DNA of 64,000 nt from a virus. This document shows positions 30,491 to 53,200 of this stretch, piece after piece. The stretch lies in IMG/VR virus record IMGVR_UViG_3300025769_000068; one strand, given 5' to 3'. The notes below the pieces were generated by a model that was given only the letters and a program-made list of their open reading frames with translations, was not told the DNA's origin and searched no databases. A program made the translations under genes and the position numbers. Positions within the stretch are counted from its first letter, which is position 1, and each line of letters opens with the position of its first letter.

Positions 30491-33148
30491 ATGTCACAAG
30501 CACCTAAAATAGCAGATAGAACTAAAGAACTTTCGTATACAACTGGAACTAATGCTTTTCTATTAGAAGGAAGTATTAATGGTTTTAGTTCGTTTGCGTC
30601 TAGTTTTGACAACGGCGATGTAATATTTTATGCCGCCACTGATGGCACTGATTACGAAGTGGGGTCTGGAGTATTTACTGATTCTTCAGCAGATACTATT
30701 TCCAGATTTGTTCTTGCTAGTAGTAATAGTAATAATTTAGTTTCATTTAGCGCTGGGGCTAAAGAGGTTTATTCCACTTATCCAGCTACTAATGCTATTG
30801 TGTCATTATCTGGAGTTGTTCCTAAATCAAGCGGTGTTACATTTTGGCTCTCTGATAAAACGATTGGTCATGATAGTAATTTTGTTTGGAACAATGTTGA
30901 TAATAGACTAGGTATCAATCAATCAAATCCATCTTTTTCTATTGATGTCGGTGGTACTTCAGCATTTTCAATCATTAATACTTCTGGTGTTCACACTGGT
31001 GTATCTGGTATATTGTTTGCAAGTGGAACTACTGTTCCTTCTTATAGCGGTGGAAGACAGCTGGAGCATTTTGAAAGAAATATCTTAGGCGATGCAAACA
31101 TACAATCTGTAATAGAGCTTAGTGGCGTTGTAGATCAATACTTATTTTTAAAGCCGCAAGATACTGGATTAATTTTTGCTGGCCCTGCCAGTGGATGTGG
31201 AGTTGGTTGTCCTCCTGCTAGACCAAGTTTTAGAACTTTAGTGTTATCTGACGTTCCAGATTTAATCTTTATTTCTGGACAATTGATGACATCCGGTGTA
31301 ACAAACGCAGCAAATATAGTTGCGATAAGTGGGATGATGGTAGATACACCAAGTGGTGTTCATAGCTATTTAGCTAGGTGGAGCGATGATGATACTTTGG
31401 GAGCTAGTAGTGTTTATGAATCTGGTGGGGTTGTTGGAATTGGCACTAGCACTACAGCAACTGGCTATAAACTGGACGTTAGAAATGGCGACATTCTAGT
31501 AGGCACTAAATTAGTTGTTGGCAGTGGAGTATATAGCCAAACTTCACCCGGAACTTATTTTGGATTAAAACATACTAGTTTCACAAGTCCATCTGAATAT
31601 ATGATCATGAGCAATGGTACTCACACTTATCTTAGCGCTAAAGAAGATAGCGATGTTATTATTAGAGGTGGTGCAAATAACGTTGATCATCAAGTTGTTG
31701 TTAGTAAAAGTGGTATCACCCTTGGTAAATACAGACCTGCGGCTAGTAGCGTAGTACCAGAACACGACGTAGACATTGTTTACGATGAAAGCAATGGTAG
31801 TGGATGTATAAGAATTGCTGATAGAAATGGCAGCGGCATAATGATTGGTGACTGCGCTCTTGAATCTTCCTCTGTTTACGCTGGCATGAAACACACAGAG
31901 ATGGCTGGTACTCTTGACTACATGATAGCTAGTAGTGGCACTCATACTTTTATAAGCGCTAGAGATGGATCTAATGTTTTTATTAGAGGAGGAGGTCATA
32001 GCTCAGAGTGCCAGATTAGTGTTCTAGATGTTGGTGCTGGTTCTGTAGGTATTGTTTTTAATGACAACGGTGCTGACAGAGACCTTAGAATGGAAGGCGC
32101 TAGCAATGATAATCTTTTCAGACTAGATGCTAGTGAAGATAGGATTGGTATTGGAACAGATATACCTCAAAGTACTTTAGATGTTAGTGGAGTGATAACT
32201 GCTGACAGTGGTGTTTACAATGTTTTGGATATGAATCTTACGGAAGAAGCAAGTTATCCAACACATCAAGAAGGTAGGGTCTGGTATGATTCAGATTCCC
32301 ACGCGCTTGTTGTATATAATGATGAGTCAGAAGTTACACAGCAGGTTGGGCAAGAGGAATATTTAAGAGTTAGAAATAATACTGGCTCTATTATCTTAAA
32401 TGGTTCTGGTGTTAGAATTACAGGTAGTCACGGAAATGTAGCTCCAACTGTAGAATATGCTATAGCAAGCGGGGAAGATCTTTCAAGAGTTGTGGGTTTA
32501 GCTACTCATGATATTGAACACAATTCCTTTGGATATGTTACAACTTATGGTTTAGTTAAAAATGTTAACACTGCTGCATTTACTGCTGGGGATGAGCTTT
32601 TTCTTTCTGAAACTGATTATGGATCTTTTAAAAATACTTCTCCTAGAATTCCAAATTATTCTTCTCCAATTGGATATGTTGTAAGAGAAGCTACTAATGG
32701 TTCTATATTAGTAGAACTTGGAAAACACAAACTCGGTGGTGGTGATGTTAAGTCTTTAGACATGGGAGTTAATGTTAGTGGTATACCATTTATAGAAGCT
32801 TCTGGTAACGGAAATGCTATAGGTCTTGCAAATGTTGATAACTTTGTTTATGACAGCGGAAGTGCAAGGCTAGGAATTGGAACATCTAATCCCACATCAA
32901 CTGTATCTGTAAGTGGTCAGTTAGAAGCTCTTGAGATATTACAAAGTGGATCATCTATAGCTTTAGACGCAGATCTCATTCATACGTCTGGAATGATAGA
33001 TAGTGTTTCTGGCAATATGCCATTACAAGGGACCATAGCAACCGCCAGCACAGCAGGAACTCTGGGTCAAATTAGGTGGGATTCAAATTATATTTATGTT
33101 TGCGTAGCTACAAATACTTGGAAAAGAGTTCTTTTATCCACATGGTGA
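30491..33148 (+). CDS. Long fibre/appendage protein, Ser-Gly rich
   Basis: 885 aa ORF with a DR.KE.S.T.G anchor domain, RLGI...P...LDV fibre repeats, an internal duplication and a C-terminal GTLGQIRWDSNYIYVCVATNTWKRV module. Confidence 0.7.
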   Translation: MSQAPKIADRTKELSYTTGTNAFLLEGSINGFSSFASSFDNGDVIFYAATDGTDYEVGSGVFTDSSADTISRFVLASSNSNNLVSFSAGAKEVYSTYPATNAIVSLSGVVPKSSGVTFWLSDKTIGHDSNFVWNNVDNRLGINQSNPSFSIDVGGTSAFSIINTSGVHTGVSGILFASGTTVPSYSGGRQLEHFERNILGDANIQSVIELSGVVDQYLFLKPQDTGLIFAGPASGCGVGCPPARPSFRTLVLSDVPDLIFISGQLMTSGVTNAANIVAISGMMVDTPSGVHSYLARWSDDDTLGASSVYESGGVVGIGTSTTATGYKLDVRNGDILVGTKLVVGSGVYSQTSPGTYFGLKHTSFTSPSEYMIMSNGTHTYLSAKEDSDVIIRGGANNVDHQVVVSKSGITLGKYRPAASSVVPEHDVDIVYDESNGSGCIRIADRNGSGIMIGDCALESSSVYAGMKHTEMAGTLDYMIASSGTHTFISARDGSNVFIRGGGHSSECQISVLDVGAGSVGIVFNDNGADRDLRMEGASNDNLFRLDASEDRIGIGTDIPQSTLDVSGVITADSGVYNVLDMNLTEEASYPTHQEGRVWYDSDSHALVVYNDESEVTQQVGQEEYLRVRNNTGSIILNGSGVRITGSHGNVAPTVEYAIASGEDLSRVVGLATHDIEHNSFGYVTTYGLVKNVNTAAFTAGDELFLSETDYGSFKNTSPRIPNYSSPIGYVVREATNGSILVELGKHKLGGGDVKSLDMGVNVSGIPFIEASGNGNAIGLANVDNFVYDSGSARLGIGTSNPTSTVSVSGQLEALEILQSGSSIALDADLIHTSGMIDSVSGNMPLQGTIATASTAGTLGQIRWDSNYIYVCVATNTWKRVLLSTW

Positions 33149-36377: not shown

Positions 36378-37412
36378 ATGAACCATCATGAGCGGGAGTT
36401 TTTTATTTATAAAATTAGATCTGGAAAAGCATATTTACCTAAAGGTTTAGTAGTACACCCCTTTACAGTAGAGTTAAATATAGAATCTTGCATTATATAT
36501 AATAATGCTTACGAGCAAGCGTTTGATGACGAAATAATGACTGAAAAGGAAACAGAGTCTTGGATGATGGATCATGGGCTATGGTCTGAAGAAAAAGAAG
36601 AAAGAGTAAATGGATTAAAGAAAGACATTGAAAAGCTTAAGGTAGAAATTTATAAATCTCGCCACAATTCAGAGCTAGTAGAAAGAATCAGAAAATATAT
36701 TAGAGCTGGAGAAAAACAACTAAACGAAGAACTACAAATTAAAAATTCTTATAATCAAAATACTTGCGAAGGAATAGCGTATACGGAAAAACTAGAATAT
36801 CTGATAGAAAATAGTACATATAAAAATAATGAACTATATGATTTTGAAGATATTGGTATAAATGAAGCTTTATTTTACTGGCACAAATCTTTAATTACAG
36901 AGCAACAGTGTAGAGAACTAGCCAGAACTGAACCTTGGAAGTCATTGTGGAACATATACGAAAAGTCTGGAGCAAAGTTATTTTTTAACAAAGATGATGA
37001 GGACATAACATATAATCAAACAACACTTACTATGTGGTCTCAAATGTATGATAACATACAAGAGTCTATGGACTGTCCCACAAAAGAAGTTATAGAAGAT
37101 GATGATATGTTAGATGGCTGGTTTATAGTACAGGCAGAAAAACGAGAACAAGAAAAAGCAGAAAATGAATTTGATAATAACACTAATGAAAAGGTAAAAA
37201 ATTCTGACGAAGTATTTGTTATGGCAAAAAATGAAAATGATATTAACAGAGTGGAAAACATGAATAGCCTTGATAGCAAAGTGGTAAAGAAGCAAAGGGC
37301 TGCCGTGATGAAAAAGAAGGGATCTGCCCAACAGCAAGATTTCAAAGATGAAATAATGAAACAAAAAACAAAACAGATGGAAGCCTTTAAAGGAAAGTTT
37401 GGAGGAAAATAA
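36378..37412 (+). CDS. Tail assembly chaperone-like protein A
   Basis: 344 aa charged, helical ORF between the tube gene and the TMP; paralogous to the 37754 ORF. Confidence 0.5.
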   Translation: MNHHEREFFIYKIRSGKAYLPKGLVVHPFTVELNIESCIIYNNAYEQAFDDEIMTEKETESWMMDHGLWSEEKEERVNGLKKDIEKLKVEIYKSRHNSELVERIRKYIRAGEKQLNEELQIKNSYNQNTCEGIAYTEKLEYLIENSTYKNNELYDFEDIGINEALFYWHKSLITEQQCRELARTEPWKSLWNIYEKSGAKLFFNKDDEDITYNQTTLTMWSQMYDNIQESMDCPTKEVIEDDDMLDGWFIVQAEKREQEKAENEFDNNTNEKVKNSDEVFVMAKNENDINRVENMNSLDSKVVKKQRAAVMKKKGSAQQQDFKDEIMKQKTKQMEAFKGKFGGK

Positions 37413-37413
37413 C

Positions 37414-37752
37414 ATGGACGAAGGAAAAACAAATTACAAACAAGCTCGTGATAGTAAATACAAAGTAGCTTCTAGAGAAAGATTATCTAAAATTCTTAAA
37501 AAGAAAATTCAAACTACCATGATAGGAGCTTTAAGTAGTATTGAAGAAAATCTGGGTTTTTTATGGGGAGGCGATGAAGGGTCAACAAAAGATCAGCAAG
37601 TTATGAAAGATATATATCAGAAAATTAGATCTGAAATATTAGACAAAGGAAATAATCAGGCTCGAAATATTGATGCGGAGTTAGCTCAGTATGATGTGGA
37701 ATGGTTAAAATATTCAGTTACAATTCCAGTAATTACAAAAAAGGAGAAATAG
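37414..37752 (+). CDS. Hypothetical helical protein (112 aa) in the chaperone cluster
   Basis: ATG at 37414 with GGAGG SD at 37401 (the track start 37399 is a TTG). Confidence 0.6.
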   Translation: MDEGKTNYKQARDSKYKVASRERLSKILKKKIQTTMIGALSSIEENLGFLWGGDEGSTKDQQVMKDIYQKIRSEILDKGNNQARNIDAELAQYDVEWLKYSVTIPVITKKEK

Positions 37753-37753
37753 G

Positions 37754-38581
37754 ATGGACAAGGAAAAACAAAGACAGGTAGAAGTAAACGTTGACGGTGA
37801 AAAAATCAAGATCATTGTCAAAAAACCAGTTGGTGCTGTTCAAAATAGAGCAACTAGATATGCCGCCAAAGTGTGGAGCGAGTGTTTAACCGATGGCATT
37901 ATGACTAAAAAGGAATTACGACTGTTTATGAAAAATCGTAATATATGGAATGAGGACAAAGATGAAGAAGAAAAGAATATTAGCAAGAAAATTGCAGAAC
38001 TTGAAAAACAACTTGCTTTTGGTAAAAGTGGCAGTAAGAGAGTAAGCGCTGGTGAAGGTAAAGATATTGCTATACAAATTAGAGAAAAACGAATAGAACT
38101 AAGAGATCTAATTGGAGAAAGATTGTCTCTTGAGGGAAATACAGCAGAATCGCTTTCTGATAATGCAAGATTTGACTATCTAGTATCTTCTTGTACTTAC
38201 TACGAAAATGGCGAAAAAGTGTATAAATCACTAGAAGATTATGATGAAAAATCGGATAGCGACATAGCACTAGCAGCTGCCACTACAATGGCACAGATGA
38301 TGTACTCTCTGGATAAGGATTTTGAGAAATCCCTACCAGAAAACGTTTTTCTTAATAAGCACCACTTCACGAATAATGATGGAGCTTTAGTCAATAAGGA
38401 AGGCGAAATGGTAGATCTAGATGGCAGACGGATTAATGAGTTTGGTCATTTTCTTAACGATAAAGGTGAACGGGTCGATGTTGATGGTAACTTATTAGAC
38501 GAAGAGGGTAGGTATATAACTACTGTGGATTACGTCGATGAGACTGTCAAGAAAACTCGTAAAACAAAAACGGACGGATAG
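37754..38581 (+). CDS. Tail assembly chaperone-like protein B with C-terminal (D/N)xxG beta-hairpin repeats
   Basis: 275 aa ORF with AGGAG SD, directly upstream of the TMP; paralogous to the 36378 ORF. Confidence 0.5.
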   Translation: MDKEKQRQVEVNVDGEKIKIIVKKPVGAVQNRATRYAAKVWSECLTDGIMTKKELRLFMKNRNIWNEDKDEEEKNISKKIAELEKQLAFGKSGSKRVSAGEGKDIAIQIREKRIELRDLIGERLSLEGNTAESLSDNARFDYLVSSCTYYENGEKVYKSLEDYDEKSDSDIALAAATTMAQMMYSLDKDFEKSLPENVFLNKHHFTNNDGALVNKEGEMVDLDGRRINEFGHFLNDKGERVDVDGNLLDEEGRYITTVDYVDETVKKTRKTKTDG

Positions 38582-38618: not shown

Positions 38619-41600
38619 ATGTCTAAATTTAATCTCACTGCACAAATACAGTTACAAGCACCTAAAAATGCTGCACAAGTTGTAAACCAAATACAGCGTC
38701 AGTTGCAGAATATTAATGTTAATGTAAACCTCAAAGGCGCTCCACAGGCTCAACGTCAAATACAGAATTTGGCTAAGTCTACAAGTCAAGCTGCTAATGC
38801 TAGCACCAAGCTAGGTAAAGCTTTAACTGCTTCTATCAAAAGATATGCCGGTTTAGCTATTGCTACTAGGGCTGTTAGTTTATTTACTAATACTCTTAGT
38901 AATGCTGTGCAAGAATCTATAGATTTTCAGAGAGAGCTTATAAAGGTGGCTCAAGTTACTGGAAAGTCTTTGCAAGAACTTAAAGGTCTTACTTCTGAAA
39001 TTACTAGGCTATCGACTTCTTTAGGTGCTGCCTCTAGCTCTTTAATTGGAGTTAGTAGGATACTTTCTCAGGCGGGTCTTAGCGCTAATGAAACTAGGAT
39101 AGCTCTTGATGCTTTGGCTCGATCTACTTTAGCTCCTACCTTTGATAACATTACACAAACTGCTGAAGGCGCAGTTGCTATCTTTAATCAGTTTAGAGAA
39201 GGCGCTCAAGCTTTAGAAAAACAGTTGGGTGCTATTAATGCTGTTGCTGGTCAATTCGCTGTTGAGGCGGGTGATTTGATTGCTGTTATTCGTCGTACTG
39301 GAGGTGTGTTTAAATCTGCTGGTGGTGATTTAAATGAACTGATTGCGTTATTTACTAGTGTTAGAGCAACAACGCGAGAGTCAGCAGAAAGTATTGCTAC
39401 TGGTTTACGTACCATCTTTACTAGAATACAAAGACCTAAAACTATAGAATTCTTAAGAGAATTTGGTGTTGAACTTGTAGGTTTGGATGGCAAGTTTGTT
39501 GGTCCGTATGAAGCTGTTAAAAGATTGAGCGCAGCTCTTGCTGGACTTGAACAAGGTGACTTAACATTTATTAAAATTGCTGAAGAACTTGGTGGCTTTA
39601 GACAGATTGGTAAAGTCATTCCTTTAATTCAAGAATTTAGAATAGCTCAAGAAGCATTAAATGTTGCAATTGCTGGTGGTGATTCTCTTACGAAAGATGC
39701 TTTAACAGCACAACAGGCGTTAGCTGTACAGATTGCTAAAGTTAGAGAACAATTTTTAGCATTAATTAGAGGTGTATTTGAAAGTCAATCTTTTCAATTA
39801 TTTGCAAAAACTTCTTTAAACATAGCGTCTGCTTTACTTAAAGTTGGTGAAGCGTTAAAACCACTTATTCCACTGCTTACTACTTTTGCTGCTATAAATA
39901 TTGCCAGAGGTGCTGCTGGACTTATTGGAGGTTTATCTCGCCCAAGAGGATTTAACGCAGGTGGTATGGTTCCCGGTAGTGGTAATAGAGATACAGTCCC
40001 TGCGATGCTTACGCCGGGAGAATTTGTAATACGTAAAAGTAGTGTTGCTAGCATAGGTGCTGAAAATCTTGCGTCTATGAATAAATATGCATACGGTGGA
40101 ACTGTTAAAAGTTTAGGTACAACTTATACTTCTATACCAAGAACTAAAGGTTATGACAAATTACAAAATAGAAGAGTGCAAGATAATTCTAAATTTGTAA
40201 AAGTAATACCTAATGAAAAAGATTTGGACGTATGGAACAATTCAAGATCGTTTAAACATGGAGACAAATTTGAAGAAGTTTTAGCTAAATCACGAAGATT
40301 TAACACTGGACGACGAGCCACGGGGCCATTTGATATTTTAGATTTTCCTCAAACAAGATCTGAAGCTAAATTTTTACCTTTAAATGCAAGGTATGGAAAA
40401 GGAGAAAATGACAGAAACGCAAAGGGTAATACTGGTAAAAGTATTGCTGCTAAGAATTTTCTTTTTGAAAATAGCCGTGGCACGAATAGAAGACCTAGTT
40501 CGTTGTCAACTACTGCTTTAGCTGGAAAACCCGTTACAACCTACTATACAGATCCTAGTCTATGGTTGAAAAAGATGGCTACTGGCGGTGGAGTTTCTGG
40601 AACAGATACAGTTCCAGCGATGTTGACTCCCGGTGAGTTTGTAATGAACAAAGCATCTGCACAAAATATTGGTTACAGTAATTTAAACCGTATGAATAAA
40701 GTTGGTAAGTATGCTAATGGTGGTATAGTTCAAGGATTTAATACTGGTGGAACAATACGTTCGCCTCTTCTTAGTGGGGGAACATCGAAAGGAACTGTTC
40801 CAGTTTCTATACAGTCAGTTTCTAGCGTAGCTGCTTCTATGCTAGGTGGTGGATTGGGCGGTGGGGGTGGCGTTATTGCTAGCGCTGCTAGCGGAGGAGG
40901 TTCTGGCCCAAGAGGTTTAGTCGCTGCAAAAGGAACAAAAAGGGGTAATCTACCATCTAAATCTAGAAGTGTTGATAGCCTTAGTGGTATTGGTTTTGGT
41001 TTAACGGCAGCAACTGCTGCTCTTGCTACTTTCGCTCCGACTGTTGATGAAAATAGTAATGCTCAAGAAAGGGCTATCGCCGCTCTTGCTAATTCTGCCA
41101 CAACATTAGCTGCGACTTTTGGTGGTTTAGCATCTATTAGTGAATCGTTTGGTGTTAGCCTTGGTGATGCTTTTAGAGGCGGTTTAGGTAAAAAAGCTAA
41201 GAACGCCGTTCAAGAAGACATAATAGCAAGAAGTCAAGCCAAAGCGTCTGGTATAAAGCAAAGTGCTAGAGATAGAACTAAAGCTGATATAGAAAGTGGA
41301 CAAATAGATTTAAGCACATCGAAGGGTAGAGAAACAGCAAGAAAAAGAGCAGAAAAAGCTAGAAAAAGTGCGGCGGGAGTTGAAAGGCGTGGACGAGGTT
41401 TTGCAAGGGCGGGTGGATCTGCTGCTCAAGTTGGTACACAGGCTGCTGTAGGCGTTGCTGCTTTTACCGCTGCTTTTAACGCAGCTCAATCCTTAGCTCA
41501 AGTTTTCAAAGAATTAAGTGGTATTACTAAAGAAATGCAAGATGCTATAGAAGACGGTAATGTGGCTTTAGCTGAGAGAAAAGCGGCAGAAGCAAATGCA

Positions 41601-44270
41601 GAGGAAAGAACTTTAAATACAGCGAGTGGTATTGTTGGCGGTGCTGCTGCTGGATTTGCAGTCGCTGGCCCACTTGGTGCTGCTCTTGGCGCTGCTGCTG
41701 GTGGAATTTTAGCAGACTTTTTAACTCCACCAAAAGAAACTGCTGTCGCTTTAGCTGGCGCTCAAGCCGCAGCTACTAAAGCTGCTAAGAGTATGGCAGA
41801 TGCCACAAAAGAAGTTACCAAGAGGATGTCAGAATTTAGACTTGGTAATATTAGTGGGGATGAACTTTTTGAACCTTTAATAAAAGCACAAGAAGATGCT
41901 GCTCTAGCAAGAAGAAAAGGTGCAGCAGCTGAAGGCGAAGCTGCTGATTTTGGTCAAACGCTTCCGGGTGCTATGAGTCAAGCCTTTGGTTTTTCAAAAA
42001 GTTCTGATGCGATTAGAAGAGAAAACGAAGCTGCCCAAAAACAAAGAAGAGAACAAATGAAGGAAACCTCTACCCCAGCTGTACGCGCATTAGCTATGCA
42101 GGCTGCTGGAGGAGGTCAAGATGAACAACAGTTTAGAGAATTTTTACAGAGTACAGGTCTCAGTCTTAAAGATTTAGAAATGGCTGGCGTAAATGTTAAA
42201 GACATATTTGCAAGCGCAGAAAAAGAAGTTGAAAGAGCAAGAAAACAATTTGAATTATTAAATCTTGGTTTAAGTAATGTAAATGCCACAGCTGATGCAA
42301 GCATAGCCGTTTTAAATAACTTGGGGAATATTACAGATCTTGGAGCTAACTCTCAGGTTGAAAATTCTTTAAATACCTTAACTGCTGGTTTAACAGCTGC
42401 TGCTCAGGGTATAGATTTAGCTGATTTCCAGAAAGCGGTAGACACGGGCGTAGGTGTTCTACAGGGCTTAGGAGCTTCAGATGAAAGTATAAATAAATTT
42501 AAAAATACAACACAGGCGATTAATTCTGTACAGTCCGAAATACCAAACGCTTTGGAAAGAGTAAAAAAAACTTTTGATGCTAGCGGTGGAAAGGTAAGTG
42601 TTAAAGATCTTAGGCAGAAATTTGCTGACGAAATATCAGGCTCTTTGAAGGGTGTAGTAGACGAAGACACACTTTCAAATTTGACTGATTTAATTGCAGA
42701 GGGAGAGCTTTCTCCAGAAGATGTTAAAGCAATACAAGGAGGCGATATGTCTCCTCTTCAAAAACTAGTTGATGAGTTTGGTGAAGGGGCGATGAAAGAA
42801 TTTACAGAAGCTTTCAAAAAAGCAGCTGAAATAGAAAATAAACTTGTAGCTATTACTTCACAAAGAATTAATCTAGAAAATCAGTTAGTAGCATCACAGC
42901 AAAAAGTACTATCTGCTCAAATGGAAGCCGCACAGATTATAGCTGAATTTGGTGGCCCTGCGGTAACGCCTGATCAACAGCGAGCTAATATTATACAAAG
43001 TGCTAATACTCAATCTGGAGTTATTGGTGGTATTAGTAATTTACAAAGTGGTAGCGCTGCTGAACTTACAAATCGTAATAGAGAAATTAATGCCCAACTT
43101 CAAAATATAGATACGCAGAGATCAGCTGTTGCTGCTGGAGGCGGTGGTCTTGGCAGAGTCGAAGGTACAGAGTTACAAGCACAGCAAGACAGATTAATTA
43201 AGCTCGCTCAAGATCAATATAATGTTACTAAACAATTAATTGACGTTCGTAAGCAAGAACTTAGAACAATTCAAGCTAGAAATAAAGCAGAAAAAGACGG
43301 CTTGGAATCTCTACTTGATGGTGATTTTGAAGGATTCTTTGATGCTCAAGCAGCTGCTGGCGCTACAGCTGCAATCGCCACGGGCAATACTCAGCTGGCA
43401 TCGGCGTATGGTCCCGGCGGTCTTGCTGGAGCATTTAAAAACTTACAGCAGATGCAATCACAAGGTGTTACAACTGCATTTGGTCAAAACATTGGCGGCG
43501 CAGGAGGATTGCTAGAGCAATCTGCTGGAGCAGCTTTAGGGACATTTGGAATGCAAGGATCAGCAGATGTTCTTGCTGGCACTACACCAGAAGAAGCTGC
43601 CTTGCAGTCAGAAATACAAGGTTTAGCTAAAACGTTGCCAGATACTGCTCAAGTTCAAGCAAATGCTGCTGAAATGATGTTGAAAGCAGCCGTGATACAA
43701 CAACAAGTTGCACAAGCAGAATTAGCTGAAGTAAGAGAAAGGGTTCAAAACCGTGCTGGTGGTGGTTTGATTTATGCTAGCCGTGGAATGTTTGTACCCC
43801 GTGGAACTGACACTGTTCCTGCAATGTTGACTCCGGGTGAGTTTGTAGTTAGACGAGCAGCTGTTCAAAGGGGAAATAATCTTCAAATGCTTAAAGCTAT
43901 GAACAGTGGCGCTGTTAGCGATAGTGCAACACAAGCTTTATCTTCTGGGGGTCAAGTAAGATATTTACAAAACGGCGGTGAAGCTACTGGTGGAGGTCTT
44001 GGCATTAGTTCAGAAACTTTAAACAGTTTTGCATCAGCCCTTAATAACTTTAACACTCAGTTAGCTACTAATATACAAAATCTACAAAATACTCAATTCC
44101 AAATTACTTTAAATCCAGCAAATATAAATGTTAACTTAACTGGCACGTCATTCCTAGAAAAGTTGACATCTACTCTTAAACAAGAGTTGTTTAGCTTTGT
44201 GGGTCAGGAAATTGCTCAACATTCCGTGGGACCAGACGGACGACTAACTAAAGACAACCGAAGGGTATAA
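38619..44270 (+). CDS. Tape measure protein with embedded cargo domain and repeated DTVPAMLTPGEFV modules
   Basis: 1883 aa Ala/Gly/Gln-rich helical ORF. The N-terminal region resembles the TP901-type TMP core (IDFQRELIKVAQVTG...ELIALFTSVRATTRESAESIATGLRTIFTRI). It has a Gly-zipper hydrophobic segment and sits downstream of tube and chaperones. Confidence 0.85.
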   Translation: MSKFNLTAQIQLQAPKNAAQVVNQIQRQLQNINVNVNLKGAPQAQRQIQNLAKSTSQAANASTKLGKALTASIKRYAGLAIATRAVSLFTNTLSNAVQESIDFQRELIKVAQVTGKSLQELKGLTSEITRLSTSLGAASSSLIGVSRILSQAGLSANETRIALDALARSTLAPTFDNITQTAEGAVAIFNQFREGAQALEKQLGAINAVAGQFAVEAGDLIAVIRRTGGVFKSAGGDLNELIALFTSVRATTRESAESIATGLRTIFTRIQRPKTIEFLREFGVELVGLDGKFVGPYEAVKRLSAALAGLEQGDLTFIKIAEELGGFRQIGKVIPLIQEFRIAQEALNVAIAGGDSLTKDALTAQQALAVQIAKVREQFLALIRGVFESQSFQLFAKTSLNIASALLKVGEALKPLIPLLTTFAAINIARGAAGLIGGLSRPRGFNAGGMVPGSGNRDTVPAMLTPGEFVIRKSSVASIGAENLASMNKYAYGGTVKSLGTTYTSIPRTKGYDKLQNRRVQDNSKFVKVIPNEKDLDVWNNSRSFKHGDKFEEVLAKSRRFNTGRRATGPFDILDFPQTRSEAKFLPLNARYGKGENDRNAKGNTGKSIAAKNFLFENSRGTNRRPSSLSTTALAGKPVTTYYTDPSLWLKKMATGGGVSGTDTVPAMLTPGEFVMNKASAQNIGYSNLNRMNKVGKYANGGIVQGFNTGGTIRSPLLSGGTSKGTVPVSIQSVSSVAASMLGGGLGGGGGVIASAASGGGSGPRGLVAAKGTKRGNLPSKSRSVDSLSGIGFGLTAATAALATFAPTVDENSNAQERAIAALANSATTLAATFGGLASISESFGVSLGDAFRGGLGKKAKNAVQEDIIARSQAKASGIKQSARDRTKADIESGQIDLSTSKGRETARKRAEKARKSAAGVERRGRGFARAGGSAAQVGTQAAVGVAAFTAAFNAAQSLAQVFKELSGITKEMQDAIEDGNVALAERKAAEANAEERTLNTASGIVGGAAAGFAVAGPLGAALGAAAGGILADFLTPPKETAVALAGAQAAATKAAKSMADATKEVTKRMSEFRLGNISGDELFEPLIKAQEDAALARRKGAAAEGEAADFGQTLPGAMSQAFGFSKSSDAIRRENEAAQKQRREQMKETSTPAVRALAMQAAGGGQDEQQFREFLQSTGLSLKDLEMAGVNVKDIFASAEKEVERARKQFELLNLGLSNVNATADASIAVLNNLGNITDLGANSQVENSLNTLTAGLTAAAQGIDLADFQKAVDTGVGVLQGLGASDESINKFKNTTQAINSVQSEIPNALERVKKTFDASGGKVSVKDLRQKFADEISGSLKGVVDEDTLSNLTDLIAEGELSPEDVKAIQGGDMSPLQKLVDEFGEGAMKEFTEAFKKAAEIENKLVAITSQRINLENQLVASQQKVLSAQMEAAQIIAEFGGPAVTPDQQRANIIQSANTQSGVIGGISNLQSGSAAELTNRNREINAQLQNIDTQRSAVAAGGGGLGRVEGTELQAQQDRLIKLAQDQYNVTKQLIDVRKQELRTIQARNKAEKDGLESLLDGDFEGFFDAQAAAGATAAIATGNTQLASAYGPGGLAGAFKNLQQMQSQGVTTAFGQNIGGAGGLLEQSAGAALGTFGMQGSADVLAGTTPEEAALQSEIQGLAKTLPDTAQVQANAAEMMLKAAVIQQQVAQAELAEVRERVQNRAGGGLIYASRGMFVPRGTDTVPAMLTPGEFVVRRAAVQRGNNLQMLKAMNSGAVSDSATQALSSGGQVRYLQNGGEATGGGLGISSETLNSFASALNNFNTQLATNIQNLQNTQFQITLNPANINVNLTGTSFLEKLTSTLKQELFSFVGQEIAQHSVGPDGRLTKDNRRV
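39951..43979 (+). repeat. Three protein-level copies of DTVPAMLTPGEFV (39990, 40605, 43809) with flanking [FYML]xxGG motifs
   Basis: The same 13-aa motif is encoded with different synonymous codons in each copy. Flanking motifs: FNAGG, YAYGG, MATGG, YANGG, FNTGG, LSSGG, LQNGG. Confidence 0.9.
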
Positions 44271-44272
44271 GG

Positions 44273-47200
44273 ATGATACAGGATTGTTTTTCACCAAAGG
44301 TAAGCTTTAAAAAAGCGGGAGTTGGAAAACTCAGGCTTGGAGAAAGAGCGGGATTATTACAGGTACGTTGTCAAACTGATGTTAATCTAAAATTTGATAT
44401 AAATTTAAAAGCAGCAAATACTGGCGATAGACTTATTTCATCTAAAATGTTAGGCTTTGCAACACTAAAACAAACAACTACTAGCGATATTAATGTTAAT
44501 AGATATTTTAATCTAGATAATGCTTTTATAACAACTAGATATAAACTTAACCCAGCTAGTATTTTTGCAAGACCTTCTACTTCTGCTTTTGTCTCCGCAA
44601 GGCCACATAAGATTGCAGGGACTCACGACTCTTATCGAGAATTTGACAATTTTGTAGCTACAGAAAAATTATATCCTAGCGGTATTGAAGTTTTTGAAAG
44701 TGGATTTAACAGAATTATTGGAGTGGCATCGTCTATTGATGATGGTGTGCTTATCGGAAATTATCTAAAAAATGGATTACCAAGTTCCCGCGTTACTAGA
44801 GATTCTATATTTTTAAGATCTCAAGAAAGATTTGGAAAACCAAAAGATGATCATAATAATTATAAATTAGTATTAGAGATGGATAAACCTTCTACTGATA
44901 TGCTAGAAAGTTTTTTGGCAATTAGAGTAGATGCTCCTATTGAAAATTTTAGATCTCATAAGCCACTTTCTTATAAATTTAATAATCTAAAGTTTACTGA
45001 TCCGTCTGGAAATTTAATAGTACAATATAAAGACTTCACAGTTAAGGGTGAATCAAAGTATCTATCTACAGTAAACCCAACTACCTATTTAACTGAACCG
45101 CTAATAAATAACGCAAAACTAGATAAGGATGATAGTAATTATCCTCTATTTTTTAATGAAAGTGGTTATTTACTAAATATTGATGTGGAGACTTCCACTT
45201 TAGACGACCCATTTAACGTTGGTTTTAGTAACGCATTTTCTGAAGATAATAGACCAGTTGGTGGTAGAAGAGAAGATTTTAGAATTATCTCACTTGAAAT
45301 ACTATCACAGGGTTTAAGTAATTTTAGAAATGATGCAATACTTCCTTTTTCCGTGCAAGTTCCTGCAACTGGTTTAAGAACAGAAAGAAAAATATTTCCA
45401 TCAAATCTTTTAAAGTATAACTTTGATACAACTATTTATCCTTCTGGAGAACACTCTCTGTGGACAGATAATGGTAATCATACTTTTAACGACGTTGAAG
45501 ATAACAGTCACCTAAGTAATATTTTACGATTAGACGGTAATGACAAATTTATAGAATTATCTTCTACCACGGCTATTGCAGATTCTGGTAAGCTAAAACT
45601 TAAGTTTAGTCATGAGCCTCCGACTTCTGCATTTAGGTATGCAGATGGGGCTTTCCAATTTGCTTTTTCGTCAAATTCCTTTGACGCTGCTAATAAAAGA
45701 CAAGTTTCTGATATAGATTCTTTCTTTGTGGTTGACGAGATAGAGTTAAAGGTTACGGCTAAAAAGTCTGCTTCTAGTAGAGATTATGTAATTGATGCTG
45801 TTGGTTATAGTGATGATAAACTTTTGCATATAACTCCTAAGATTGGTGGATTTTTACAAAACGCTTCAGGCCAACATCCATCTGGAATAGGCGTAACTCC
45901 AGTTTCTTCTGGATTTGCAAATATAAACGACTTAGGAATTTCTACACTACCAATATCAGACAAGTTCTCTTACTTTGAAACTTCTGGTACTAATAACTTA
46001 GGAGGTAATCATTATTCATTACCTTTAACACCAATAGTAAATACAACTGAATTCACAGAGTATACTATACCTTTAGATATTTATCCAGATAATGTTAGAC
46101 TTGGAAAGTCTGTTGATTACTCTATGAGTTCTTACTTTGAACATCTATACTTAGATTTATTCCCATTCCCAAGTGGCGCGGCTATATCTAATATATCTTT
46201 ACTTATTAAGTACAGACCTAGCAACGCTCTTCCACTCCATACTGTTGCGCATGAAAAAGAACCATTACATAAATCTGAAGCTAAGGGGTATCCTTCGTCA
46301 AGTCAAAGCACGGACAGAAAGATAAATTCTGTTATACAAAATTCTGGACTGTCATTAATAGAAAGCATCCCACACGGATATCAAAGTCCAACAACCATTA
46401 AAACAAATTACGCTAGACGTTGGAGGGGTGTAGATGGAAATGTGATGACAGGTCCGTTTCAACCTACTGTCTTTGATTTCTCTTTCGAGAATCCTCAACT
46501 AGATGCGCCGTTCTTAAATGGAACATTTGATTTTACAAAGATAGAAGACGGATTCGTATTACCAAATCAAAGTGGATTATTAGACAACAATGTTAGTGGA
46601 TTTTATAATGCTAGCTTCTCATCTAATCTTATAGAAAATATTGGTTTACGATTTAATAATAGTGGTCTTTTTGTAAATCAACAACGAGATTATAAAACTT
46701 TAGATTGGACACAAACGGGTTCTGAATTAAGTGGTAAAATATTAGACTCTTTCGATAAAGCTTTAAGATTATCTGGACCTGACGCAAACATTAATTTTGG
46801 TAGTGGCATCTCAGTTTCTGGAGGTTTCGCGGCATACATTAGATTTTCTCCTGATGTTTCAATAAGTGGAAGCTCTTATAACCTTTGGGACTCTGGGGTG
46901 CTGCTATCAAAATGGAATCACGGAGAAGAACTAGAATTTCTTTTAGCTTATAGCGGTGGACATTTAGCCGCTCATGCTAGAGATATTGACAATAATACTA
47001 TATCTATATATGATAGTCAAGATTATACTAATTACCAATATCCACTATCTGTATTACTTACATATAATGATAATTTAAGTAGTAGATTAAAGTTATACGT
47101 TGACAGTGAAATAGCTAGCGGAAGTTATGATCTACTTCGAGCATCTTCTACTTCTTTCTTTATGGCATCTGGTAATAGTCCAATTGTAGCTGGTTTCTCT

Positions 47201-50200
47201 TCTGCTTCTGGCGTTGGTACTAATGTATTTGCAACAGACGTTGGTTTATCTTTCCACAATGCCAGCGGATCTAATATAACAGAATCTGGAATTAACTTGG
47301 ACATGAAGCAAACGGAGGTTGAAGGCTTCTTTAGCGGTCATCGTGCAAAATTCTGGAATGCTGGAGAAAGTCATGTTTATGATAGATATAAACTTTGGAG
47401 TTTTGTTGATCAAAATACAAGCAAGTGGAAAATAGGAGAATTTAATTTTTGTATGTTTGATCAAAACTTTAGTAGATTTAGTAAGAGGGTAGGCAGAGAT
47501 TATATTCAATTTAAGCTATCGCATAGTGGATTTCCATATTATCAAACTACAAATTTAGCTTTACCTTCTGGTAGTATACAAACATCTGGATTGGCATATC
47601 ATAGTCAGTTAGAAAATGATATGTTGAGACTTGACATTGGTACTATTCCAGACGGAGATAGTCATAGGCTTTATTCTGCATCTCCTAGAATTTCAAAGAA
47701 TTTCCCAAGAGGTTACAAGTTTGAAGAATCAGCATTTGTTGTAGATACTGTTATTCAAAGTCAAATTGATCAAGAAGTAAATTGGAATGATGGCAATACT
47801 GGACCTAAACTAATTGTAAGTTTATACGCCCCTCAAAAAGACCCAACAACATATGTAGAGTCAAATTTTGGTCTAGTAAATAGACATTATCATTATTTAC
47901 CTTTTAACGGTTGCATGACGAAAATATCTAGTACTTTTGATTATAATGATTGGATAGATAAATCAGAACCTTGGGCAGAGTTTAATTCTAGAACTGCTAG
48001 CACAGAGTTTGACCATAAGTTTTATTCTGACGACATTGATAAGATGTTTATTCAGTATGACATAGCATTTCCTTCTGGTGATAAGTTTACTTCTAACATC
48101 AAACTACATTCAATAAATTTAAATTTAGAAAATGTTTTAGCGTCTGGAGATGCAATTTCTTCTTCTGGCTTTGCGTTGTTTGCCAGCGGGAATACACTAT
48201 CCTCTAACGCCTTAGAATTGTTTGTAGATTCTTTGGTTAATATATCTGGAGCGCAACCTTCTGGATTAACTCTATACAGTTCTGGCGCGGCTATACCAAC
48301 AGTATCTGGAGAATCACCAAGTGGTTTGTTAATGTCTACCCTTGCTTACGATCCTTCTACAGTTAGTCGTGCTTCTGGTATGTACTTATCTTTATTTTCT
48401 TCTGGAGATGCAACAATTGGATTTGATCCAAATTTGATTATTCATGAAGGAATGTATGGTATTGTTAATACTGATTTTAATCCGGTTGTCAATCTCTTTA
48501 CTGAGGGCGGTGCTTTTGGAGTTAAAGTTTTAGATGGCGCTCTTTCCATATCTACCTTTAACGACGGTATTCTAGATTCAACTAGTGGAGATTTGTTCCT
48601 ATTTAATCAATCTGCTGGATTAGCCGATCCAATTTTAGATAGTGGAAGCATAACGATGTTTCTACATGGAGTTCCAGAATTAAATCCATTTATAGAATTG
48701 GTAGATACACTTCCGCTATATTTGGGTGGCGTGGATTTAAACATAACCTCCAGTAGTTCTCTAGACTTACGAATTATAGGACAGCCAATTATTAATGGTA
48801 TTAATAATGATATACATTTATTTACTACAAACTACAATGTTGCTCCGGGTGATTTAGGTCAAGAATTTATAAGCTGGACAAATGTAAATGCTGGCACAGG
48901 AATCTCAACTATTGAAAGTGATTATTCTTACTTAGAATCTAGCGATGAAATTCGCGGTGTAGATTTAACATGCTATGGAGATTGTGAGTCAACGGATGAA
49001 CCTTGTACTGATCCAGAAATTATTATTCATGGAAAGAATTTTGGACAAGATTGTGTTGACGGTGGAATATTTAGAGCTAAAAGATTATATACTAATCTTG
49101 CTACGAGTGGATTTAAAACTGACGTTGGATATAGCGGTAATTACTATGGTATTAGAAAATTTACTGGATTGATTCCTCATGCTCCATATGATATTCAAGT
49201 TTTTGGTAGAACAGCTGGAGAAGAAAGAAAAGAACTTCCAAGATCTTTATCTATTAATTATGGCACTAATGAAAATGTTCATTTTTCAGGTATCAAATTA
49301 ATTGCAGACGGAATACAGGGAGCTAGCGGTAATACTCCACCAAGCTCTACAACTCCAAGAAATGCATTTGATCAGTATGGAAAGTCTGTTTGCGTTGGTA
49401 AAAAGTATATGGTTGTTGGATCTCCTAAACACCATGTTTTTGATTATGACTCTAGAGATCTTGGAGAAGCTGGAACTGTGTTTGTATATGAAAGAAATTC
49501 TGAACCAAGTGGATATGATTGGTCTAATCAAGATGATAAATCTGGTTTTTCTTTTGTTTCTGAGTTAACACTACCAATTGGACTTAAAAGAGATTATGCT
49601 GTAGCCATAACAAGCAAAGACGACCCCCTTCAACCGCAGAGTGATAAAAAGTTACCTTTTCCTACAACTAGAGCTGAGTGGTACAACATAGGAGAAGGTA
49701 GAAATTTTGGATCATCTTTAGATATGTCTAATTCTGGTGAAAGTCCAACCATTGTTGTTGGCGCTCCAAACAGTGTATGGTCAAGAACATTTTCTGATCC
49801 AGTTCCAACTCCCATTGAGGTTGCGCTATTTGTATTCACCAGACCTTTTAAAGAATTTAAAAACGTAAAAAGACAAGGCCGAGAAGCGGAGGAAACTGTG
49901 ATTCCGGGTAAAAAAACGTATCGTGACATTTTACCTAGTATATCAGATGTAAACTTTTTATATAAATATTATTCTAATCCTGCTGTTTCTGTTAACTTAA
50001 AAGTTATTATAGTTGAGCCTAATTTAACCAGCGGTCCAGCTGGAGATCAAGACTTTATTGGTGGAACAGAGGATGTGGCATTTAAGTTTAGTATTTCTAA
50101 CCATGAGAGAGGTAAGTTTAGAGGTCAATCTCATACCACTCAGATGTTTCAACAACTACAAGAAATCTTCCACGGTCCTACAAGTGGGATATATCCACTT

Positions 50201-53200
50201 GATAGTAGCAAGATAAATAGTGGGATACCTGTGATTGTAGGAGCTTTAGTTGATGATAGTTTATCTATGGGTAACGAAACCCTTGGAGAAAATGGAAATG
50301 ACGCTGTAGATCAATTCTTTGATTGGTATAAAGAATACTCATTTGCTAGTGGCGTTACAAACTTTAGTAATGAACCTTCAGCTGGTTCTACTTTTAGAAC
50401 ATCTACTGACTCGGGAGAAGATTGGATAGCACTTTCTATTAATCTTATTAAAACGGTATTTGACACTGGAAGAATGGCTGCAAGTGAAGACTTTAAGTTA
50501 TTTTCAACTAGTGTTGGAACTTTTAATAATAATACTGCTAGATTTAATATGCCACCACCAAGCGGTGGAGCCGTTTTTGTATACGAAGAAGAATTTAATG
50601 ATGGAAAATTAGAATGGAATCCTATTCAAATTATAAATTCTCCAACAAAGTCTAAAGACGTATATGCAGATAGATTTGGTCATGACGTTGCTATTAGTGA
50701 CGACAAATCTACTATAGTTATTGGTTCTCCATACATAGACGAAGCTATAAGTATTTATGAAAGAAATCCATATACTTTTGCTCATGAATATGTGGGCAAT
50801 TGGATAAATAGGGTTGGTCCAAACGATAAACCATTTGGATACTTACGAGATAAGTACAGAAGATTTCAAGAACTTGTTCCAGCATTAGGACGCGGTGAGG
50901 CTCAAAAAGTTTTATTTAATGAGTTAAATGCCAGTGGTAAATTACAACTAAGAATAGATGAGGATATTAAGGCGTATGAATTAAATCAACGTTACACACA
51001 TAGCGAGATGAAACCTACCATTCCCCCAGATTGGGAATTCTTATATAGCAAGTTTGCGCCTACTCCAAGATTGGGTTATTCTGTTGATACTAACTCAGAT
51101 GGCTCTATTATAGCTGCTGGTGCGCCAACTGACAGCGTGCTAAATGAGGATAATGAATTCGTTGTATGGTGGAGACCGGGAGCCACACACACAAGTCAAT
51201 GGTTTTCAACCACAAATGCTGGATCTGTCACTGTGCTTGAGGGTAAAAAGTATTATGTTCATAAAAATAAAGCTGTAGAATATACTAGACTTGGTAATAA
51301 ACATAGAATATTAAATGAAGAAGAGCAGGGTGCGGGTTTATTTGATCACATGACAGCTATTTATAGAGATGCTGGTATTGATTTTTCTATACTGCCAAAT
51401 GACGAAGTAGATATTCCAAATGATGCAGGGTTGATGTTTATGATTACGCCAGCCATAGATGGTTTAAGCGATGAAATTGTAGAAAATATTCAAAATTGGT
51501 TAGGTCTTGGAGATAGACATTTAGTACTAGTTTCAGATGATCCAGTTTATGAAAATAGTGGAGTTTATGGAACTACCAATAATATTGTTAATGAATTGCT
51601 TACAAGGCTTGATTCTAGAATTGAAGTTGTGCCAGCTAGGTCTGAATATGAATCACTAGTTGGATCTAACAGAAGAGATAATAGTCCATTTAATGAAATG
51701 GATCTTAATATAATACCATCATTTATTCCCGGTGGAACAACGTCATTCAGCTATCCCGGTATCAAGGAGAATAGCTTCAGTGGATTACGTGGATCTGGAG
51801 TTGCTGACATTAAGTTAAATTTCCCCGGTATTTATTCAGCTTATCATTGCGGCGAAAGAAGAAACAATCTTTTTGAAACAGATTTAGCTGGAAATGAAAC
51901 AGGAGCTTTCCCATCATATCAAGAACTGAACGACAGGTGCGAAATGATTCCTCAACATGGGGGAGATCTTAGAGCAGAATGGATTGATTTTTGTGAAAAT
52001 CCAATAGGATTAGGTATTATAACATTCCCAGTAAACTTGGCGATGGCATTTGGTACTCAAACAGAAGTAACCGTTGGTTGCTGTATAGAAGATTGCCCAC
52101 CACCACCTACGGGACTCCCAAATAGGGAACCCATACCGCTACTAGTAGCGAATGAACATAGTCTAGAAGAGAAAATTATACCAGCTATTCCAGAAAGAAT
52201 TAAAGAAGTTGAGGTTGTTGTTGGATTTGAGACAAAAACAGGAGGGCCGTTCTTTTCAAAAGATTGTTTTGAAGAAGCACAGTTTTACTGGACAGCGGAC
52301 AGTAATAATTATAAAGGCTTGAATACTAACCTTGGTTTTACGTCAAGTCCTAGCAAGTATATTACAGACAACGAACTTGTAGCATCTAGAAGAAGTATTC
52401 TTAGATCTAAATCTCATTCTGAAGGCCAAGTTATAAATGAAAGAAATCCAATAGATCATTTTAATATTATCTCTAAAGAAAAATATAAAGATACAACATC
52501 TGAAGTATACATAATTAGTAATACTGACATGGAGCTTAGAGAATTTTTATTAAATTCAGAAGTTGACGATAAAAATCTTTTAATATATAGATCCATATTA
52601 AAATCTGTTAATAATAGCGATGAGTTTTTGACAAGAATAGCACAGCTGGGTGGGTGGACAAATAGGACAGCATTTAAAGATGGTCGTGAAGATTCTTACC
52701 TAGAAGAACTACTTGGTTTCTTGCCACCAGATGTAGCTTACAATGTAGATGATTTAGAAAATCATATTTTAACTAGTACTTATGACGCTGCGTGGATTGC
52801 CAATACTGACCAAATCATACCAAGTGATGACTTAAATGTATTGAAAGCTTGGCTATCACGGGGCGATAGAAAGTTATTTATAACTTGCGGTAGAAAAGAT
52901 TCCTCTAGTGATAATCAAACAATTACAGATCAAGGCATTCCATTAGAAAATGTAGAAGCTTTAGAGTCTTTAGCTGCTGGCTTAGAATTGAATATGAGGC
53001 CATTAAGACTGCCAGTAAAAAACAAAGTAGCTTCTATGATAGATTTCTTTCCAGACATTGAAGCAAGATTTGAAACATTTGGAGAATTAAATGATCAAAT
53101 GAGAGATTTTGGTTTTGGTCAAGAAGATTTCAATGCTGGGGCTTCAGCTACATTTGCAATTCCTGCATTTAATTCTTTATCAATATCTGGTGGCGAAAGA

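Follow-up and report, generated by a model that had tools for sequence, protein, structure and literature searches.

Why should a phage tape measure protein (TMP) contain a basic, globular domain that is enclosed on both sides by copies of the same short sequence element? This question is raised by a 64,000-nucleotide stretch of DNA (hereafter the window) from IMG/VR virus record IMGVR_UViG_3300025769_000068, a viral sequence of 119.9 kb that is about 75% complete and has a guanine plus cytosine (GC) content of about 36%. In an initial annotation, the locus had been interpreted as a polyprotein from which a nuclease-like effector is cut out at di-glycine motifs and enters the host together with the DNA. 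The analysis described here partly supports this interpretation. The domain occupies a slot that is exchanged between near-identical phages exactly at glycine codons of the flanking elements, and we favor, at a probability of roughly 0.6, a reading in which the slot holds an exchangeable, nuclease-like cassette that is fenced by these modules and delivered to the host.

The tape measure gene and its bracketed insert

The gene in question is a single open frame (38619-44270) on the + strand, which carries all large open reading frames (ORFs) of the window, several of them giant. The encoded protein of 1883 amino acids (aa) matches PF10145 (PhageMin_Tail) at residues 128-312 (E 1.1e-18; 68.3 bits versus a cut-off of 33.2) as well as the TMP PHROGs 4211 and 28. 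Its adjoining genes match virion and tail PHROGs, and related proteins, which derive mostly from TARA and other marine assemblies, are annotated as TMPs of the TP901 family. On the basis of these matches, neighbors and relatives, the ORF is the TMP of an uncultured marine tailed phage. Features expected of a molecular ruler are also present, i.e. a long Ala-rich segment, hydrophobic and glycine-zipper runs, and a location within a block of virion structural genes.

Behind the TMP core, the protein contains the cassette reported in the initial annotation. All of its motifs are found at the places given there (FNAGG at residue 445, YAYGG at 490, MATGG at 653, YANGG at 698 and FNTGG at 707), and they enclose an insert that corresponds to 40101-40574. 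The features of this part of the gene are:

38619-44270, + strand: TMP gene, 1883 aa (P0001), a single ORF matching PF10145 and PHROGs 4211 and 28
38619-39938, + strand: conserved N-terminal TMP region, aa 1-440, 88-100% identical to the related TMPs P0011 and P0012
39939-40100, + strand: module M1, aa 441-494 (FNAGG, core, YAYGG), 97.5 bits with the module hidden Markov model (HMM)
40101-40574, + strand: 158-aa PD-(D/E)xK-like globular insert, aa 495-652, likely on the basis of an AlphaFold2 model, conserved residues and weak structural neighbors in the VIA search
40575-40763, + strand: module M2, aa 653-715 (MATGG, core, YANGG, FNTGG), 103 bits with the module HMM

The insert is indeed as basic and compositionally foreign as had been stated. 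Its isoelectric point (pI) is 10.3, with 31 Lys and Arg residues versus 15 Asp and Glu residues. Alanine accounts for 5.7% of its residues versus 14.6-17.4% in the rest of the protein, aromatic residues for 10.1% versus 3.7-5%, and its GC fraction is 0.338 versus 0.38-0.42 in the flanks.

Exchange of the cassette between phages

A TARA scaffold (L006) with the same gene order as the window encodes the TMP P0011, which is 92-100% identical to the window protein, except for residues ~497-650, where identity drops to about 19%. In the DNA, identity amounts to 93.8% in the left flank, up to position 40099, and to 89.3% in the right flank, from 40576 onward, and no DNA match to L006 was detected across window positions 40100-40575. 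Identity ends after the GGTGG of the Y-A-x-G-G codons and resumes at the codons for M/L-A-T-G-G. Because the flanks are 89-94% identical and similarity is absent over exactly the intervening segment, this is a clean cassette swap at GG codons between near-identical phages, and the proposal of an exchangeable cassette is borne out. The GC fraction of the L006 insert is 0.336, next to 0.338 for the window insert.

Exchange was not a single event. In 29 TMPs with the insert family of the window, the identities of backbone and insert correlate with a coefficient of only 0.46, and the two are decoupled in several independent pairs, such as 94% identity in the backbone versus 27% in the insert, or 48% versus 61%.

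A second patch of this kind was observed at 31285-31804, inside ORF 30491-33148, where the otherwise ~94% identical L006 is shorter and shows no or poor DNA similarity. The ORF encodes a protein of 885 aa with a terminal tail-protein-like segment (phrog_17312), and the patch may be another exchangeable host-interaction region.

Slots and their contents in related tape measure proteins

The cassette region is matched by at least 4216 proteins of TMP size. Among 89 relatives that appear complete, the N-terminal part has a median length of 450 aa (standard deviation 29), the ruler, taken as the longest inter-module segment, of 1075 aa (167), and the tail behind the last module of 100 aa (21). Total length has a median of 2722 aa and ranges from 1808 to 4202 aa; it correlates with the summed slots at r = 0.91 and with the ruler at r = 0.37. 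It is the slots, and not the ruler, that account for the variation in TMP length. As the initial annotation had anticipated for homologues, the segments between the modules, of which there are three to seven per TMP, differ in number and identity, while the N-terminal part, the ruler and the tail stay constant.

The window TMP represents the minimal form of this plan, 440-M-131-M-983-M-93 (M, module), in which the N-terminal domain is followed by M1, the 158-aa insert, M2, a glycine-zipper and ~1000-aa ruler section, M3 and a tail of ~93 aa. The remaining features of the gene are:

40764-43712, + strand: Ala-rich ruler, aa 716-1698, Ala 17.4%, pI 5.2
40839-41039, + strand: glycine-zipper/hydrophobic segments, aa 741-761 and 790-807, read from the sequence
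41628-41723, + strand: further glycine-zipper/hydrophobic segment, aa 1004-1035, likewise read from the sequence
43713-43988, + strand: module M3, aa 1699-1790, 83 bits with the module HMM, including the third exact copy of the core (aa 1731)
43989-44267, + strand: C-terminal tail, aa 1791-1883, the stretch after the last module

Glycine zippers of TMPs have been tied to membrane permeabilization, and that of the type VI secretion system DNase effector Tde1 is required for translocation (PMC10240207). The zipper/hydrophobic runs of the window TMP, the first of which directly follows M2, resemble the zipper that is common to TMPs and Tde1.

Slots can also be empty: eight proteins have neighboring modules that are only 0-5 aa apart, and in P0026 and P0062 M1 is naturally fused to M2. 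Clustering of the 219 short inter-module segments of 126 TMPs gave 125 clusters; a single-linkage group of 108 slot segments was discarded as an artefact of multi-domain segments. Inter-module segments with a nameable family are enzymes. An ADP-ribosyltransferase (PF03496) is found in P0017 at residues 923-1135, between modules at 795-879 and 1136-1214, and another one in P0046; SNase (PF00565) lies between two modules of fragment P0136, and a phage lysozyme (PF00959) precedes a module in P0200. Nucleases and ADP-ribosyltransferases had been named as possible slot contents in the initial annotation.

A nuclease-like domain in the first slot

The insert of the window TMP is likely a divergent PD-(D/E)xK-like domain. 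AlphaFold2 predicts a mixed alpha/beta globular domain with a predicted local distance difference test score (pLDDT) above 90 over ~150 residues, and the earlier description of the insert as non-helical has to be revised accordingly. In an exhaustive HMMER search among 1.84 billion proteins, the insert was found in 14 representative clusters, which consist of TMP-like proteins or fragments throughout; it always directly follows the first module, and no stand-alone homologue was detected. A tblastn search of phage genomes returned nothing, a shape search of the ESM Atlas gave no usable match, and look-alikes proposed by a language model (scores ≤0.83) amounted to noise.

Sequence comparison of the insert homologues revealed a series of invariant or nearly invariant elements: F-E in a helix, L-D-[FY]-P, (D/E)-A-K-F, a Y, K-G-N and a later K. 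E552, D575, E582 and K584 are conserved among 32 TMP-embedded homologues; the columns F551/E552, D575/P577 and K584/F585 are invariant, and position 582 is mostly E, with D in four homologues. The putative active site is located at:

40272-40370, + strand: candidate catalytic residues E552 (40272-40274), D575 (40341-40343), E582 (40362-40364) and K584 (40368-40370)

Matches in the VIA structural search were weak (Z ≤3.9, with FAN1 as the best), and about 30 of the 45 were PD-(D/E)xK enzymes. The neighbors include the VRR-NUC domain of FAN1, Hjc, NgoMIV, CdiA-CT, cap-snatching endonucleases, Vsr, NucC and HamA. The nuclease-like character that had been suggested for the insert fits these neighbors as well as the four conserved residues. 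The odds that the domain is catalytic are about even.

The motif order is not confined to the insert family of the window. When the pattern hE..h, hD, (D/E)hK was compared with shuffled segments, it was present in 64 of 115 slot-1 segments versus 2.4 +/- 1.6 in the shuffles; later slots (3 of 104, 2.5 expected) and rulers (14 of 120, 10.6 expected) served as further comparisons. The enrichment suggests that slot 1 of most relatives is nuclease-like, even where BLAST or hhalign homology is absent. Other slot-1 types are that of L006 and one with the residues FEG..NFDFP..AEAKR. Slot 1 looks like a site of conserved function and hypervariable sequence, and not like a place for arbitrary foreign cargo.

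These conserved residues also bear on the possibility that the insert is a non-catalytic binder of a host envelope or inner-membrane factor, or is itself a target of superinfection exclusion, and is swapped to change or keep the host range. HK97 and lambda TMPs depend on host inner-membrane proteins, and a hypervariable part between conserved flanks is typical of specificity determinants. The invariance of E, D and (D/E)xK among homologues that are 25-60% identical, and their recurrence in slot-1 types that look unrelated, points instead to an active or metal site, and renders a pure specificity domain improbable.

The junction module

The element that fences the slots contains a core of 13 residues, DTVPAMLTPGEFV, which is present three times in the window TMP, at residues 458, 663 and 1731. 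The first two copies had been recognized in the initial annotation, but the third one had been overlooked. The three 39-nucleotide cores differ by 5-9 nucleotides and every difference is synonymous; over 68 nucleotides, the core copies are 62-78% identical. Because only synonymous differences occur, the repeat has been kept by selection on the peptide and is not the result of chance or of a recent duplication of DNA. The core of the module is under strong purifying selection.

A module HMM was built from 437 copies in the 126 TMPs. Its consensus starts with F-A-S-G-G and x-V-P-G-S-G-T, which lead into the core, and continues with I-N-K-S-A-V-Q-K-I-G-A-G-N-L-A-K-M-N and K-Y-A-K-G-G, often followed by a second x-x-G-G, such that each module has two or three xxGG motifs. 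In 28 homologues, the glycine pairs of the window TMP at all three boundaries (G448/G449, G493/G494 and G656/G657) show no variation, and the module is most conserved in its 13-aa core, not in the GG. The di-glycine motifs hold fixed places in the consensus and are thus the ends of one unit of 55-70 aa rather than the free-standing signals as which they had been regarded.

Structure prediction, which had been proposed for module and insert alike, gave a confident model for the insert only. The module alone, modeled with 116 sequences, reached a pLDDT of 59.6 and a predicted template modeling score (pTM) of 0.26; within the cassette model it forms a beta-hairpin and two short helices with a pLDDT of ~60. 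Autonomous folding of the isolated module is not predicted, and its behavior in these models is that of an extended signal, or of an element that requires a partner or an oligomeric state. Literature searches with fragments of the module motif retrieved unrelated papers only.

By tblastn, the module was found in 446 phage records, mainly in TMPs of Mycobacterium and Gordonia phages; phmmer detected it twice in gp16 of mycobacteriophage Douge and once in lambda gpH, and it is also present in the TMP sequence of JBD30. The HMM of the marine modules matches lambda gpH at residues 730-797 with 30.5 bits, where an ATGG motif occupies residues 734-737, and the pattern GG, (D)xxPAxLxxGEFV, GxxNLxxMN, YAxGG is shared by the marine modules and the C-terminal module of lambda-type TMPs. 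No Pfam family covers the module, the lambda copy included, which is situated C-terminal of PF09718 (aa 627-701) and ahead of the gpI-bound C-terminus (aa 818-849). Ordinary, cargo-free TMPs often bear a single module near the C-terminus, as exemplified by lambda, cluster B mycobacteriophages and Gordonia phages. Judged by this distribution, the module is an old and widespread TMP element. Since the lambda module likewise precedes the gpI-bound residues, M3 and the C-terminal tail of the window TMP may be regarded as the positional equivalent of lambda gpHC.

A module copy is also found in a cyanomyovirus, Synechococcus phage S-SM2 (6678-8978), in the middle of a 766-aa 'transmembrane protein' whose gene adjoins that of the gp26 baseplate hub; this protein is probably a divergent gp29-type TMP of T4-like cyanophages. 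Module-driven matches in BFVD include cyanophage 'lysozyme' proteins of 722-950 aa. Phages of GC-rich hosts encode 'phage-related minor tail proteins' of ~330-410 aa (P0173, P0165 and P0205; 75 member sequences on 132 contigs), which have two modules ~100 aa apart and end ~50 aa past the second one; they may be small or split C-terminal parts of TMPs. Three short ORFs with modules, located on long contigs (P0141, P0142 and P0144), were rejected as natural splits, because they look like frameshift-broken TMP genes.

The wide occurrence of single modules could indicate a purely structural role, in which the modules are assembly elements (providing oligomer register, docking to chaperone, tube or hub, or hinges) that allow a globular domain to be spliced into an extended TMP. 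The insert would then stay attached and work in cis; it might gate the channel, for instance, or hold or pilot the leading end of the DNA. Such a role is in line with the cargo-free TMPs, with the bracketing of inserts on both sides, with empty tandem modules, with the strong selection on the core and with a position of slot 1 that published tail structures would place head-proximal, near the DNA end. It leaves unexplained why a hypervariable insert is swapped between near-identical phages and why typical effectors, i.e. ADP-ribosyltransferase, SNase and lysozyme, occupy other slots. In addition, the module region is not resolved in any solved tail, hence no contact is on record. We consider this structural-joint reading quite unlikely.

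Is the tape measure protein cut?

The distribution of the module leads back to the proteolysis on which the initial annotation had focused. Lambda gpH sheds a C-terminal piece of ~14 kDa 'from the glycine-rich region', with site and protease unmapped (PMC12617516). The Gly-rich run of lambda gpH (aa ~705-722) directly precedes its module, and a fragment of 13-14.6 kDa needs a cut at about residues 710-730, just N-terminal of the module. Because the lambda cut would fall just upstream of a module, TMP processing is plausible as such; that processing takes place next to the modules is doubtful in our estimate, and a cut specifically after GG is less probable still.

In the polyprotein reading, modules or di-glycines are processing signals, and the TMP is cut during tail maturation or after ejection, which would free the nuclease-like effector. 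The position of the lambda cut next to the module, the cut in T5 pb2 that separates its muralytic C-terminal piece, the invariant GG pairs at three boundaries and the non-autonomous fold of the module, as expected of a linear signal, are all consistent with this reading, and processing into separate units has been proposed for polyvalent phage proteins (PMC5512222). On the other hand, the module far exceeds the length of a cleavage site and its core is conserved above the GG, there are several xxGG motifs per module, and tandem modules can lie 0-5 aa apart. The lambda fragment size indicates a cut upstream of the module and not at its GG, and T5 pb2 is not detected by the module HMM. A search for a candidate GG-specific protease, as suggested by the initial annotation, gave no JAB, C39, C48 or M23 peptidase in the 75%-complete genome, although divergent or host enzymes are possible. 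Taken together, these points make the polyprotein reading unlikely.

The only protease-like match found in the genome is a weak one to Peptidase_S78, the HK97-type prohead protease (12.5 bits, E 0.009; G000:C1:22080-22307), which sits in a 485-aa ORF upstream of the window. For T5, if pb2C comprises the last 92 aa, its start, A-E-G-G-M-M-Y-P-G ... G-E-H-G-T-E-V-V, loosely resembles the start of the module, which is a lead only.

The module might even be a universal processing and sorting element of TMPs, which specifies the cut of lambda gpH into gpH* and gpHC and, in giant marine TMPs, makes a polyprotein of the ruler that releases a varying set of enzymes into the host, namely nuclease-like domains, SNase, ADP-ribosyltransferase and lysozyme, each fragment starting at a module. 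We put this forward as a tentative idea that more probably fails than holds.

Proposed delivery of the slot-1 domain

The reading that we favor, a module-fenced and exchangeable nuclease-like cassette delivered by the TMP, works without proteolysis, even though release of a domain next to a module would be possible in view of the lambda and T5 precedents. The TMP would be expelled ahead of the DNA, and because slot 1 is on the side of the ruler that faces the head, its domain would enter the host last, next to the leading DNA end. In the cell, it would act on nucleic acid, either host DNA or a defense element, and an arms race would account for the hypervariability of slot 1. Through the conserved modules, the junctions would stay compatible with assembly, and recombination would have a common frame. 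It is probable that exchangeable enzymes reach the host by way of the phage tail.

Several observations weigh against this reading. No nuclease family was matched by the insert in Pfam, PHROGs, NCBIfam, PADLOC or the PDB sequences, and a Foldseek search of PDB and BFVD with the insert model returned nothing. Because no sequence family matches and the structural matches are weak, the insert may also be a novel fold in which the charged site is a look-alike. The L006 insert has the order E...D...ExR instead of ExK, and hhalign detects no homology between it and the insert family of the window (probability 0.8%). The lumen of the tail tube leaves little room for three or six copies of a folded domain of 18 kDa. 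Finally, delivery, activity and target of the slot-1 domain are all inferred.

Neighboring giant genes

The structural block also contains three giant ORFs, 7456-18528 (3690 aa), 18528-27017 (2829 aa) and 44273-56152 (3959 aa), none of which matches a PHROG. The last one lies directly 3' of the TMP gene and contains FG-GAP repeats (PF14312). On the 5' side of the TMP gene, the ORFs 37399-37752 and 37754-38581 are putative chaperone genes.

Comparison with known systems

Lambda gpH and the window TMP share the module, which is followed by a short hub-binding tail in lambda, and gpH is processed in a Gly-rich stretch near the module. In contrast to the window TMP, gpH has a single module and lacks an inserted globular domain, and its glycine zipper is located before the module and not after it. 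T5 pb2 is cut into pb2* and pb2C, between a hydrophobic stretch and a muralytic motif, which frees an enzymatic piece that is proposed to be expelled into the host. Different from the window TMP, this motif is located at the extreme C-terminus, as a single piece and not in a bracketed, exchangeable slot.

TMPs with peptidoglycan hydrolase motifs, such as YomI of SPbeta, resemble the window TMP in having an enzyme domain inside the TMP that acts at entry. The TMP of mycobacteriophage TM4 also has an embedded peptidoglycan hydrolase motif. These enzymes are wall hydrolases, whereas the module-fenced slots described here hold a nuclease-like domain in slot 1 and ADP-ribosyltransferase or SNase in relatives.

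Polymorphic toxins have demarcating motifs, i.e. VENN in CdiA and PxxxxDPxGL in Rhs. Together with MuF-toxin fusions (MuF-VIP2), they share with the slots a conserved carrier, a conserved peptide and a variable enzymatic domain that is exchanged by recombination. In the window TMP, however, a tail ruler serves as the carrier, the variable domain lies inside the protein with a fence on either side, and no cognate immunity gene is evident, the neighboring ORFs being large structural genes, although no search was aimed at immunity genes. With members of the PD-(D/E)xK superfamily, such as VRR-NUC and Hjc, which have an alpha-beta-beta-beta-alpha-beta core fold and supply most of its weak structural neighbors, the insert shares the order E (in a helix), D, (D/E)xK, but it has neither a matching sequence family nor a Z-score above 3.9 nor a Foldseek match. 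Polyvalent proteins likewise combine many effector domains (ADP-ribosyltransferases, nucleases and lysozymes) in one virion-delivered polypeptide for which processing is proposed; they are packaged in the head and have a zincin-like peptidase, whereas no such peptidase was seen here (Iyer et al. 2017, PMC5512222). TMPs are not mentioned in that study.

Wall hydrolases embedded in TMPs, TMP cleavage in lambda and T5, and head-borne polyvalent or polymorphic effectors were already known. New are the module-fenced, recombinationally exchanged TMP slots, the nuclease-like content of the first slot and the connection between the module and the processing region of lambda. The question of which protease cuts lambda gpH, and where, dates from 1974, and directly downstream of the presumed cut region lies an unannotated module, which in thousands of marine TMPs also encloses slots for exchangeable enzymes. 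The slot contents may constitute a large unexplored pool of early-acting enzymes directed against the host or its defenses, and the idea of virion-delivered polymorphic effectors is extended from heads, where MuF fusions and polyvalent proteins reside, to the tail ruler.

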